Origin: a virus
Lineage: Duplodnaviria > Heunggongvirae > Uroviricota > Caudoviricetes
IMG/VR virus record: IMGVR_UViG_2541047834_000005
Span: 1 to 44,807 of that record
Direction: 5' to 3' (one strand)
Length of the DNA: 44,807 nt
Below the pieces are notes generated by a model. The model saw only the letters and a program-made list of their open reading frames with translations. It ran no database searches and was not told where the DNA came from. Shown one piece after another: positions 16,080-37,039 of the stretch. Both the position numbers and the translations under genes were made by a program. Position 1 is the stretch's first letter, and each line of letters starts with the position of its first letter.

Positions 16080-16464
16080 TGCTGCCTCCGTGACTCTGCC
16101 TACATTCGCCCAGCTCCGTACACTCCAGCAGCAGAAAGCGCCGCGCCCCGTTCAGATCACGCTGACGTTTCACCCGGTACACACTGTCATCACAGACCAC
16201 CTCATAATCAGCAGTGATCCCCCGGCGGTAACGAATGGTGATGTAATGGGTGATGGCGTCCCCGGTCTGCGCGGTTTCCTGCCAGGTGGTGGCACTGGTC
16301 TGGATAACCTTCGCCCATGTCCGGAACGTAACCGGGTATTGAGGCTCCACGCCAAAGTTATCCGCGGGCATATCCACCCGCTGGCGGATCAGGACGCGTT
16401 TATTCAGTTCACCGGGGTCCGGCAGAATGTAGGTTGCGCTGGTCTGCGCCTGACGAATTTTCAT
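16054..16464 (-). CDS. Head-tail adaptor / head closure protein
   Basis: 136 aa following the gp6-like connector. Confidence 0.45.
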   Translation of the reverse strand: MKIRQAQTSATYILPDPGELNKRVLIRQRVDMPADNFGVEPQYPVTFRTWAKVIQTSATTWQETAQTGDAITHYITIRYRRGITADYEVVCDDSVYRVKRQRDLNGARRFLLLECTELGECRQSHGGSNGDSLFSR

Positions 16465-22553: not shown

Positions 22554-22594
22554 TCCTGGTTAAATTTCATTTTTCGCGGGTATAAAAAAACGAT

Positions 22595-23195: not shown

Positions 23196-23744
23196 ATGTT
23201 TGATTTTACTCATTTTGAAGAGTTGACTTTAGCATCCCATCAACCCGATAGAATAATGACTATAGTTCGGTCCCAAGATGACATTGGTATCTATCTCCGC
23301 ACTCACCTTTTGATTGAACAAATCTTGGAAGCTTGGATTATCTGTGCCTCTGGTAACAGGGATTTCTTCAGCGGTTTTGGCGAAAATATCAACATGGATT
23401 TTGCCATTAAAGCTCAGCTTGCGATGAACTATGGGATGAGCTCAGAGCTAAACAAATTTATTCGAAGGTTCAACAACTTCAGAAACAAACGTTCACATCA
23501 AATTAACAACTCTGACATCACTAACAGTGAGATTGACTCCTTAACAAGTCTAATGGAGCACGGTTACCCTGATAGCTTGACCCCCATTAGAGATTTTAAG
23601 CTTGGGGTTTACGGAGCAGAAACTAGGGTTGTAAGTTTCACGGGATCCTCTACAAGCTTACGCGATAAGCTCATTATGTTATTCGCTATGTTTTCCATGA
23701 GGGTACATTACGAAGCAAAATGCTTAAGCACGCCACAGAGCTAG
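23196..23744 (+). CDS. Hypothetical protein with R-x4-H motif (possible HEPN-like nuclease), first gene of AT-rich insert
   Basis: 182 aa; RNKRSH at residues 96-101; AT-rich codon usage distinct from flanking genes; own promoter and RBS. Confidence 0.6.
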   Translation: MFDFTHFEELTLASHQPDRIMTIVRSQDDIGIYLRTHLLIEQILEAWIICASGNRDFFSGFGENINMDFAIKAQLAMNYGMSSELNKFIRRFNNFRNKRSHQINNSDITNSEIDSLTSLMEHGYPDSLTPIRDFKLGVYGAETRVVSFTGSSTSLRDKLIMLFAMFSMRVHYEAKCLSTPQS

Positions 23745-23822: not shown

Positions 23823-24383
23823 ATGATCCATACGGTACATTTTTTGACAGATGTTACAGTTGCCTCTGTAACTAATCTGATGGATGTCTGCTTAAAAGCA
23901 GTTTCAAATACTAATCAACCAGCAACAGAAATTAAGCTCTATATTTCCAGCAAAGGTGGAGATACAGTTTCAGGCTTTACTGCTTACAATTTTTTAAAGT
24001 CACTTGGTGTAAAGGTTACTACGCATAACCTCAGTAATGTTGAATCAATCGCAAACGTGATCTATATGGCTGGAGAAGTGCGAACTGCCAACCCACTTTC
24101 TCGCTTCCTTCTTCACCCACTGCATTGGGGGTTCGCCGCACCCAGCGCAGATCACCTACGATTGAGAGAATGGGCTTCATGCCTCGATGACGATCTAAAT
24201 CGATTTATTCAAATCATGGATATTGAAACAAAAAAGAAAAATCCAAGTGAGATTGCTGATTGGAAGGATTTGATCACTTCGGCAACCATCCTTCATCCCG
24301 GAAGGGCCTCCGAGTTGGGAATTGTTCATCAAGTCGAGGCTGCAACCATACCCACGGAATCGATCCGCTGGTGGGTACTTTAA
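23823..24383 (+). CDS. ClpP/S14-S49-like serine protease-fold protein
   Basis: 186 aa; ISSKGGDTVSGF, VESIANVIYMAGE and LLHPL segments resemble ClpP oxyanion, Ser and His regions; AT-rich. Confidence 0.5.
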   Translation: MIHTVHFLTDVTVASVTNLMDVCLKAVSNTNQPATEIKLYISSKGGDTVSGFTAYNFLKSLGVKVTTHNLSNVESIANVIYMAGEVRTANPLSRFLLHPLHWGFAAPSADHLRLREWASCLDDDLNRFIQIMDIETKKKNPSEIADWKDLITSATILHPGRASELGIVHQVEAATIPTESIRWWVL

Positions 24384-28056: not shown

Positions 28057-28261
28057 CGTCTTCTTCCTCGTACATTGAGCTATTCGGATCGCTCATCAGT
28101 TCTGCGCAGCAGTGCTCACACACGTGAACTTCCAGCACATGCAGCTTCTGACCGCAGTTAGCGCACGTTAAAGCCCGCTCGACGCTTTCTTGTTCGTAAC
28201 TTCGATTTGGGTCAATCACCTTGTTTTCCTCGCACGATGTCTTAGCCACCGGATATCCCAC
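28049..28261 (-). CDS. NinF-like protein
   Basis: C-terminal [39 protein letters not shown] as in lambda NinF. Confidence 0.6.
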
Positions 28262-28398
28262 AGGTGAGCCGTGTAGTTGAAGGTTTTTACGTCAGATTCT
28301 TTTGGGATTGGCTTGCGTTTATTTCTGGAGCGTTTCGTTGGAAGGTATTTGCAGTTTTCGCAGATTATGTCGGTGATACTTCGTCGCTGTCGTCTCAT
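28216..28398 (-). CDS. NinE
   Basis: Internal start [52 protein letters not shown], lambda NinE-like; ATGA overlap with upstream gene. Confidence 0.7.
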
Positions 28399-28933
28399 GC
28401 CGCCCTCCTGACGCCCTGCCCGATCGCCATCAATGCCGCTTTGCATACGGTGGTAAACATCCGTCGAGGACTGATGAACGGTCGCCAAATCAGCAGCATG
28501 GAGCCTTTGCTGTTTCCCTTCTTCTCCAGCCCTGTCGATGGTTCGATAAAATTAATCCGTCCATCAGTGATAATGCGAACTTCGTCGACACTCTCCAGAG
28601 CCTTGCTGAACCATCCGACTGACATATCCTCTGGCACAAGCATCACTACCGTCTGTCGCTGTTGTATGCACTGCTCAGCGGCTTTTTCCACCCACGGCCT
28701 GATATTGCTGTACGGTGGGTTATTCCAGATTGCACCGTGGCTTACCCACTCAGAATTGAGCGCGTCGTCGGCCTCAGTTAGCCAGTGAGCACACAGAGCA
28801 TTTTTGTCGCTCGCTGCCGAATCCAGCCAGAATCCAGCCAGAATCCAAACTCAATATCCAGTGCATCAAAAAGCCAAAGCGGCGTTTGCCAGCAGTCCTT
28901 GTCGTGTGCTGGCGTATTTGATTTGATAGTCAT
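28395..28933 (-). pseudogene. Phage Dam-like DNA N6-adenine methyltransferase, frameshifted by an 11-bp tandem duplication
   Basis: 5' fragment (MTIKSNTPAHDKDCWQTPLWLFDALDIEFGFWLD...) and 3' fragment (...NNPPYSNIRPWVEKAAEQ...IIWRPF) are in different frames; removing one copy of the repeat at 28821-28842 restores one ORF. Confidence 0.65.
28821..28842. repeat. Perfect 11-bp tandem duplication (atccagccaga x2) at the methyltransferase frameshift point
   Basis: Read directly from sequence. Confidence 0.85.
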
Positions 28934-29370
28934 GCAGCCCGATCTCCCCATCTCGCTTTCCACTCCAGAGCCAGTCGCGCTTCGTCCGACCACTTAACGC
29001 CACGCTCTGTACCGAATGCCTGTATAAGCTCTAATAACTCCGCAAATTCGCTTACACGCATCCTGCTGGTTGACTGGCCTATTACCACAAAGCCATTCCC
29101 GGCAAGGTTAGGAACAACGTCCTGCTGCTTTAATGCTGCGGTAAACACACACTTCCAGCTTTCTGCATCCAGCCAGCGACCATGCCATTCAACCTGACGC
29201 GAAACGTCACCAAGGCAAGCCCAAAGCTTTCGATTCTGGTCTAAGCTGCGGTTGCGCTCCTGAATGATCACTACGATTGGCTTGGTTGGGTCTGGAAGGA
29301 TTTGCTGTACTGCGTGAATAGCGTTTTGCTGATGTGCTGGAGATCGAATTTCAAAGGTTAGTTTTTTCAT
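28930..29370 (-). CDS. ninB: NinB recombination protein
   Basis: Near-identical to lambda NinB from MKKLTFEIRSPAHQQNAIHAVQQ. Confidence 0.85.
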   Translation of the reverse strand: MKKLTFEIRSPAHQQNAIHAVQQILPDPTKPIVVIIQERNRSLDQNRKLWACLGDVSRQVEWHGRWLDAESWKCVFTAALKQQDVVPNLAGNGFVVIGQSTSRMRVSEFAELLELIQAFGTERGVKWSDEARLALEWKARWGDRAA

Positions 29371-36070: not shown

Positions 36071-37039
36071 ATGAGTGAAGTAACAGATTTAGTTGTTATT
36101 GAAAAAGCAAATGCAATGACTGTATTTCAGTCTGCCGACCAGATTGAAGAAATCCTTCAAAAGGTTGAACGTGAAGTTATGTCCTTTGTGCCTGATATCA
36201 CAACGGCAAAGGGCAGAAAGGAGATCGCTTCTCTGGCGTATAAAGTTGCGCAGACGAAAACATATCTCGATGGTCTTGGCAAAGACCTTGTTGCTGAACT
36301 GAAGGAAATTCCAAAGCTAATTGATGCTAACCGCAAGACAGTGCGTGATCGCCTTGATGAGCTGAAAGCCAAGGCACGCCAGCCTCTTACTGATTATGAG
36401 GAAGAACAGGCACGGATTAAAGCCGAAGAAGAAGCTAAGGCAGCAGCTGAAGCTCTCGCAAAGCAAATTGAGTCTGACCATGAAATAGCGATTTTGATGG
36501 ATCGCGAATTTGACCGCCAAAGAGAAGAGGCAAGACTCAAAGCGGAGCAGGAAAAGCGAGAGCATGAAGAACGCTTAAAAAGAGAAGCTGAAGAGAAAGC
36601 CAGAGCAGAAGCCGAAGCAAAGGCAAAAGCCGAAATTGAAGCAGCAGCAAGGCGAGAAGCAGAAGCTAAGGCCGCAGCGGAACGTGCAGAGCGTGAACGC
36701 ATTGAAGCCGAGCAACGAGCACAGCGCGAAGCAAAAGAGGCAGCAGAACGAGCTGAAAGAGAAAAGCAGGCGGCAATTGAAGCAGAACGCCGAAAAGCAC
36801 AGGAGGAGGCTGAACGAATCAGGCGCGAGGCTGAAGCAAAAGAGCAAGCCAGAATAGCAGAAGAAAAAAGAATCAAGGAAGAAGAAGAGCGTAGAGCAAA
36901 GGATAAAGCTCACCGGAAAGAAGTAAATAACAAAATACTTGCTGACCTTATCAAGGTTGGCGCATCAGAAGATGTTGCTAAAAATATCATAACAGCCATC
37001 GTAAAAGGCGAAGTATTCGCAACAAAAATAACCTACTAA
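36071..37039 (+). CDS. Hypothetical protein with long charged E/A/K/R-rich coiled-coil
   Basis: Start at ATG 36071 preceded by GGAGG; central ~180 residues are almost pure EAKR repeats; globular N- and C-terminal regions. Confidence 0.6.
   Translation: MSEVTDLVVIEKANAMTVFQSADQIEEILQKVEREVMSFVPDITTAKGRKEIASLAYKVAQTKTYLDGLGKDLVAELKEIPKLIDANRKTVRDRLDELKAKARQPLTDYEEEQARIKAEEEAKAAAEALAKQIESDHEIAILMDREFDRQREEARLKAEQEKREHEERLKREAEEKARAEAEAKAKAEIEAAARREAEAKAAAERAERERIEAEQRAQREAKEAAERAEREKQAAIEAERRKAQEEAERIRREAEAKEQARIAEEKRIKEEEERRAKDKAHRKEVNNKILADLIKVGASEDVAKNIITAIVKGEVFATKITY

Follow-up and report, generated by a model that had tools for sequence, protein, structure and literature searches.

An 11-bp tandem duplication interrupts the accessory dam gene of an Escherichia coli prophage lineage

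The phage dam gene located between ninB and ninE in an apparently otherwise complete Escherichia coli prophage contains a perfect 11-bp tandem duplication, which is very probably a null allele generated by slipped-strand mispairing; we estimate the probability of this reading at roughly 0.9. The DNA analyzed, hereafter referred to as the window, is the whole of a 44,807-nucleotide stretch (positions 1 to 44,807 of IMG/VR virus record IMGVR_UViG_2541047834_000005), and its features are listed in Table 1. Neither the gene family nor the mechanism of mutation is new, and the allele is an ordinary, recent loss-of-function variant of a well-known accessory phage gene, present in one E. coli prophage lineage. 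It matters little outside annotation, where a single frameshifted pseudogene of a phage N-6-adenine-methyltransferase is the appropriate entry for the locus; public assemblies instead list a 51-aa "hypothetical protein" and an apparently spurious 174-aa antisense ORF.

Table 1. Coordinates, strand and supporting evidence for the features discussed in the text (window numbering).
Feature	Position	Strand	Evidence or location
11-bp tandem duplication	28819..28847	.	Tandem Repeats Finder and single-copy homologues
Disrupted phage Dam (orphan N6-adenine, predicted GATC-type) methyltransferase gene	28395..28933	-	PF05869 match of the restored ORF
N-terminal fragment ORF, 51 codons and TAA	28778..28933	-	Translation
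Downstream part of dam, native frame, residues about 36-175	28395..28819	-	
NPPY catalytic motif (motif IV)	28710..28721 (28721-28710)	-	Downstream frame
ninB (orf), recombination mediator	28930..29370	-	PF05772 on the identical gene in GCA_006352165.1 (L002)
ninE	28216..28398	-	PF05322 on the identical gene in GCA_006352165.1 (L002)
Antisense ORF, 174 aa	28264-28788	+	Inside the broken dam; without a Pfam match
NUMOD4/HNH endonuclease gene, 169 aa	27547-28056	-	Between ninF and a 91-aa gene
182-aa gene without a family	23196-23744	+	Between the lysis cassette and the HNH/terminase genes
186-aa gene, ClpP-family (PF00574) match	23823-24383	+	Between the lysis cassette and the HNH/terminase genes

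The disrupted gene is 539 bp long, compared with 528 bp for its single-copy parent. Its first frame runs from the ATG at 28933–28931 through MTIKSNTPAHDKDCWQTPLWLFDALDIEFGFWLDSGWIRQRATKMLCVLTG to the TAA at 28780–28778; residues 1–35 of this product are those of the native protein, and the other 16 are out of frame. The second frame reads ...FWLDSAASDKNALCAHW...NNPPYS...GVRRAA and terminates with the TGA at 28397–28395. Past the break, the single ATG, GTG or TTG start codon in that frame is a GTG at 28691, which lies beyond NPPY and opens a 98-aa ORF; ribosomes initiating at the ATG of the gene are not expected to reach the downstream part. When positions 28821–28831 were deleted in silico, a single uninterrupted ORF of 175 codons was obtained, and no lesion besides the duplication was found in it. 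The restored ORF matched the Pfam profile PF05869 ("Dam", DNA N-6-adenine-methyltransferase) from end to end, with an E value of 2.8e-64 and 216.3 bits against a cut-off of 28.1 bits (residues 4–169 on profile positions 1–167 of 169). Even in its truncated form, the 51-aa product carries a PF05869 tag in the public collection. An earlier note on this DNA had described a phage N6-adenine methyltransferase split over two frames, with NPPY in the downstream one, a frame break exactly at a perfect 11-bp duplication, and a continuous ORF once one copy was removed, and the translations, the profile match and the in silico deletion bear out this description.

Two motifs of the family allowed the consequences of the break to be predicted. 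Across 14 aligned homologues, the most distant of them 59% identical, residues E28, F29, G30, F31, L33, D34 and A36 were invariant, as were N68, P69, P70 and Y71. The duplication falls between D34 and S35; it thus splits the invariant EFGFxLDxAA motif and lies upstream of NPPY. Both motifs are encoded in the disrupted DNA, but in different frames, and no single ORF spans them, the frameshift occurring after residue 35 and the stop after 51 residues. Judging from these positions, neither fragment is likely to be an active enzyme, and the locus appears to be a pseudogene of the PF05869 family rather than a functional member.

We then characterized the repeat itself. The sequence ATCCAGCCAGA is found at 28821 and 28832 and has no other occurrence in the window. 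Tandem Repeats Finder reported the array with a period of 11, 2.6 copies, 100% matches and a score of 58, the highest among the 10 arrays in the window. The units, AATCCAGCCAG, occupy 28820–28830 and 28831–28841 or, equivalently, 28821–28831 and 28832–28842, and the 2.6 copies correspond to two full units and a 7-base partial copy. Three GAATCCA 7-mers (TGGATTC on the coding strand) bound the duplication at 28819–28825, 28830–28836 and 28841–28847. The periodicity is longer than the earlier note had recognized and reaches 29 bases, since the single-copy parent already has TGGATTC twice, 11 bases apart. A perfect 22-base repeat of period 11 is expected by chance about 0.01 times per 44.8 kb (44807 × 4^-11); shorter repeats of about two copies of 9–10 bases occur elsewhere in the window, and repeat statistics alone are therefore weak evidence. 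A search of the whole window against Rfam gave nothing at gathering score, and therefore no RNA element explains the duplication site.

It is the comparison of homologous sequences that shows the extra 11 bp to be an insertion. A 101-base query across the site aligned as 90 bases, the length of the single-copy form, at each of 2,082 places, which were distributed over 1,545 of the 5,426 complete E. coli genomes, and also in all 244 phage records; the few rows of higher identity were split alignments of 80–90 bases and were likewise single-copy. All 12 one-copy genes that we fetched read GAGTT-TGGATTC-TGGC-TGGATTC-GGCAGC. The two 7-bp direct repeats of the parent are spaced by exactly one unit, which is also the amount of sequence that the mutant has gained. 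From these alignments, we conclude that the single copy is ancestral and the duplication derived. The earlier note had called for this comparison and had asked whether intact homologues might carry the duplicated 11-mer; none did among the E. coli genomes and phage records searched. Searches through the neighboring NinB, primase-helicase and HNH proteins yielded mosaic relatives only and no exact one-copy sibling with otherwise identical DNA, the nearest one-copy relative found (L018) showing 20 mismatches over 6.9 kb. It is thus from the comparison across the whole family that the order of events is deduced.

The intact relatives are numerous and well conserved. The restored protein is identical at 174 of 175 residues to Orf32 (M.EcoVT2Dam) of the Stx2 phage VT2-Sakai, whose gene is also located between ninB and ninE homologues, and it is 100% identical in amino-acid sequence to a gene product of the Stx1a phage LC645428. 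The gene in the window is thus the same gene, in the same ninB–ninE slot, as those encoding M.EcoVT2Dam and the other lambdoid nin-region Dams of PF05869; unlike in these relatives, the 11-bp duplication truncates its product at 51 residues. M.EcoVT2Dam of prophage VT2-Sa has been described as an orphan methyltransferase, with its target stated as GATC (PMC6602927), and at 99% identity the parent allele probably had the same specificity. Copies of the gene at 90–99% DNA identity were present in 1,566 of 5,426 complete E. coli genomes (29%) and in 244 phage records, protein-level relatives were present in 1,898 phage records, and the 90% cluster of the intact Dam protein has 2,325 members. Summed over 12 comparisons between the restored ORF and intact copies, there were 82 synonymous versus 29 non-synonymous differences, a pattern that points to purifying selection on the intact family. 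A sequence search of the PDB with the Dam protein returned no relative.

To what extent the two-copy allele recurs was assessed at the protein and DNA levels. The exact 51-aa product was found on 8 contigs of the public collection, and it has been deposited as a "hypothetical protein" of E. coli HVH 206 (EQU51250.1). Two NCBI assemblies (GCA_006352165.1, L002; GCA_964049255.1, L009/L029) and two Logan assemblies, each from its own run (SRR23185591, L003; SRR7211952, L004), were 100% identical to the window, duplication included, over 4.2–16.3 kb. Such flanks show that these carriers are identical by descent and belong to one lineage. The lesion accordingly reads as single, recent and private to that lineage; we judge it recent from the complete amino-acid identity between the restored protein and its counterpart in phage LC645428 and from the mostly synonymous differences of the intact copies. 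An exact 37-mer across the duplication had no match in GTDB (one genome per species) or in IMG/VR. A metagenome search with the 28-mer core gave a sole match, which we rejected because the contig was non-homologous; on that contig (Ga0136641_1025903, L001), positions 1380–1570 hold a longer, imperfect array of AATCCAGCCAG that lies outside any dam homologue, and the match is coincidental.

Other changes in the same gene were also observed. The cluster of the 51-aa product contains five other sequences only, all of them 47-aa products of different single-base deletions (P0002–P0006) within about 15 bases of the duplication site and mostly derived from short Logan or ENA contigs. Another allele (P0031) has an in-frame deletion of 28 residues that removes the first motif, and a group of 41 member sequences (P0037) encodes a 233-aa Dam-NinE fusion.

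The genomic context of the gene was examined next. The right end of the window is 99.5% identical to ybhC and the adjoining integrase and excisionase genes in E. coli KE40 and related strains, and the prophage is therefore integrated beside ybhC in the E. coli chromosome. The early region, whose gene content was read from loci with a sequence identical to that of the window, is uninterrupted and comprises cI, cro, cII, O, a gene for a 626-aa primase-helicase, ninB, dam, ninE, ninF, the NUMOD4/HNH endonuclease gene, rusA, ninH, Q and the lysis genes. In the late region, the TerS, TerL, portal, protease, major head, tail sheath, tape measure and baseplate proteins are all encoded at full length. 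Apart from dam, we are apparently dealing with a complete lambdoid prophage with a contractile tail. The reading frames around dam overlap on both sides, the ninB TGA with the dam ATG (ATGA, 28933–28930) and the ninE ATG with the dam TGA (ATGA, 28398–28395), and the premature stop probably also abolishes translational coupling from dam to ninE. Sibling prophages differ in what follows ninB, namely Dam, NinD, a PAPS reductase, an HNH gene or nothing; this slot is mosaic, and Dam is therefore an optional module.

We propose that the duplication arose during replication, when the nascent strand would have slipped between the two pre-existing 7-bp repeats (TGGATTC...TGGATTC, 11 bp apart) and the intervening 11 bases would have been copied twice. 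The extra bases would shift the frame after residue 35, within EFGFxLDxAA and upstream of NPPY, translation would stop after 51 residues, and no active enzyme would be made. The lesion would then have been inherited by descent within one prophage lineage, its effect presumably being tolerated since the E. coli host supplies a Dam of its own and the phage dam is an optional module. The slippage mechanism, the loss of activity and the neutrality of that loss are what we infer from the comparisons above, and none of our results speaks against this account. Slipped-strand mispairing between short direct repeats is a classical source of spontaneous duplications and deletions, as exemplified by the lacI CTGG hotspot. 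As in classical slipped-strand frameshifts, the parental direct repeats lie one unit apart and the mutant has one extra unit; the flanking repeats were present in each of the 12 one-copy genes, the lesion is derived and the parent is intact. The locus is a clean textbook case of a slipped-strand duplication of 11 bp, in which the two parental 7-bp repeats can still be seen. Exact look-up in a collection of 15 billion proteins returned neither the product of the reciprocal 11-bp deletion (three SNP backgrounds), nor the three-copy product (two backgrounds), nor the in-frame four-copy product, nor the two-copy product on two other backgrounds. Unlike the lacI CTGG hotspot, the dam site thus shows no signs of a hotspot, the reciprocal deletion and further expansions not having been found in that collection. 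The two-copy allele could act as a lineage marker for the prophage.

The same lesion might have been selected rather than tolerated, if the lysogen gains from losing the extra Dam, whose surplus activity could for instance interfere with mismatch repair or with the stability of the prophage. We consider this unlikely. The other independent dam lesions, namely the single-base deletions and the in-frame 28-residue deletion described above, are compatible with selection, and the host Dam level affects the stability of Stx prophages (Murphy et al. 2008, as cited in PMC3342100). However, broken copies are rare compared with thousands of intact ones (2,325 members in the cluster; 29% of complete E. 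coli genomes), the intact copies show an excess of synonymous differences, and several of the single-base-deletion alleles, found on short Logan or ENA contigs, are possibly errors of assembly.

The earlier note had also suggested that the duplication could be an on/off switch rather than simple decay. According to this reading, the two-copy allele would be the OFF state of a slippage-driven contingency locus, in which gain and precise loss of the 11-mer toggle the prophage Dam at a useful rate; if true, it would be a rare case of duplication-based phase variation in a phage methyltransferase, and the comparative evidence is contrary to it. The locus does resemble the phasevarion mod, hsdM and hsdS genes in that a methyltransferase ORF is interrupted by a repeat whose unit, here 11 bp, is not divisible by three. 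Moreover, both copies are perfect and a third 7-mer flanks them, so that precise excision would give the wild-type gene. Phase variation has been defined as reversible variation at one locus that occurs at a rate high enough to be detected without selection (PMC11868660). In surveys of phase-variable methyltransferases, repeats with units of at least 4 bases qualify from three units upward, and the absence of copy-number variation between strains is counted against switching (PMC7383803); at dam, by contrast, there are only two full units, and about 2,300 homologous copies are uniformly single-copy. The zero-copy, three-copy, in-frame four-copy and other-background two-copy products were those absent from the 15-billion-protein collection, and all two-copy carriers are identical by descent. 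Phasevarions are host-expressed Type I or Type III systems driven by simple sequence repeats, whereas the prophage dam belongs to neither type and is an orphan gene in a repressed prophage operon. From lambda biology, the delayed-early nin operon in which dam lies should be largely silent in a lysogen, and with the host Dam present, switching would be expected to have little phenotype. One study did report expression of a phage Dam in cultures of Phi24B lysogens (PMC3342100). The two units, the lack of variants and the single lineage favor a one-off inactivation, in line with the simple decay offered in the earlier note, and we regard its switch as very improbable.

A precedent for reversible, duplication-based switching is cap3A of Streptococcus pneumoniae (Waite et al. 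2001, as described in PMC11163986), where an in-ORF tandem duplication is likewise the OFF state and its precise loss would be the ON state. Unlike cap3A, for which that account reports demonstrated reversion, dam has a single fixed allele in one lineage. The same slippage can in principle delete one copy, and occasional revertants are possible; nothing in the sequences suggests reversion at a meaningful rate. A low-rate, cap3A-like OFF state, from which the carrier lineage would yield one-copy revertants at a frequency that matters once the phage enters a dam-deficient or GATC-restricting host, is likewise very improbable.

It is highly implausible that the break is bypassed by −1 ribosomal frameshifting or by slippage of the transcribing polymerase, at some point from the duplication to the TAA, to yield a full-length enzyme with a short substituted segment. 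A shift of −1 is the right direction for restoring the frame, and the 60-base overlap of the two frames includes a run of five A residues (ACAAAAATG). The tracts known to support efficient transcriptional slippage are longer than five A, however, and neither a long A run nor a zero-frame X XXY YYZ heptamer was found in the 60-base overlap, the codons at the five-A run being ACA AAA ATG. The homologues are all single ORFs, none of them frameshifting, and the bypass product would have the AASD of the invariant LDxAA motif replaced by eight other residues.

Finally, an artefact in a genome that is truly single-copy, with dam intact, can be set aside: the sequencing or assembly error that the earlier note had kept in view is excluded, to judge from the identical allele with 100% identical flanks in the four separately assembled data sets listed above and from the product-level match in E. 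coli HVH 206, and read errors are not typically perfect 11-base duplications.

Additional observations were made on the surroundings of the inactivated dam. The 174-aa antisense ORF is annotated as a gene in public assemblies that carry the two-copy allele (positions 10146–10670 in GCA_006352165.1), and it is most likely a gene-caller artefact due to the frameshift. In the same assembly, identity to the window ends at position 16347 (window position 22587), between the HNH gene and terS, and a different antiterminator/holin region follows, whereas the contig of GCA_964049255.1 designated L029 passes the same point unchanged; the prophage may have been rearranged or be a recombinant there, or else the contig is chimeric. 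The NUMOD4/HNH gene is present in some sibling prophages only, other HNH genes occupy different nin slots, and the gene looks like a mobile, homing-type insertion. The 182-aa and 186-aa genes are on the strand opposite to that of their neighbors and are possibly a moron; PADLOC gave no match for the neighboring unexplained genes, these two included. A 322-aa early-region ORF without a Pfam or PADLOC match contains a degenerate array of the hexamer AGAAGC (about 14 copies, 63% matches) at 36583–36666 and a 15-bp repeat at 36539–36568. Lastly, the window contains 129 GATC sites compared with 175 expected (length/256, uncorrected for composition), a count that agrees with the GATC-poor regions reported for prophages (PMC6602927).
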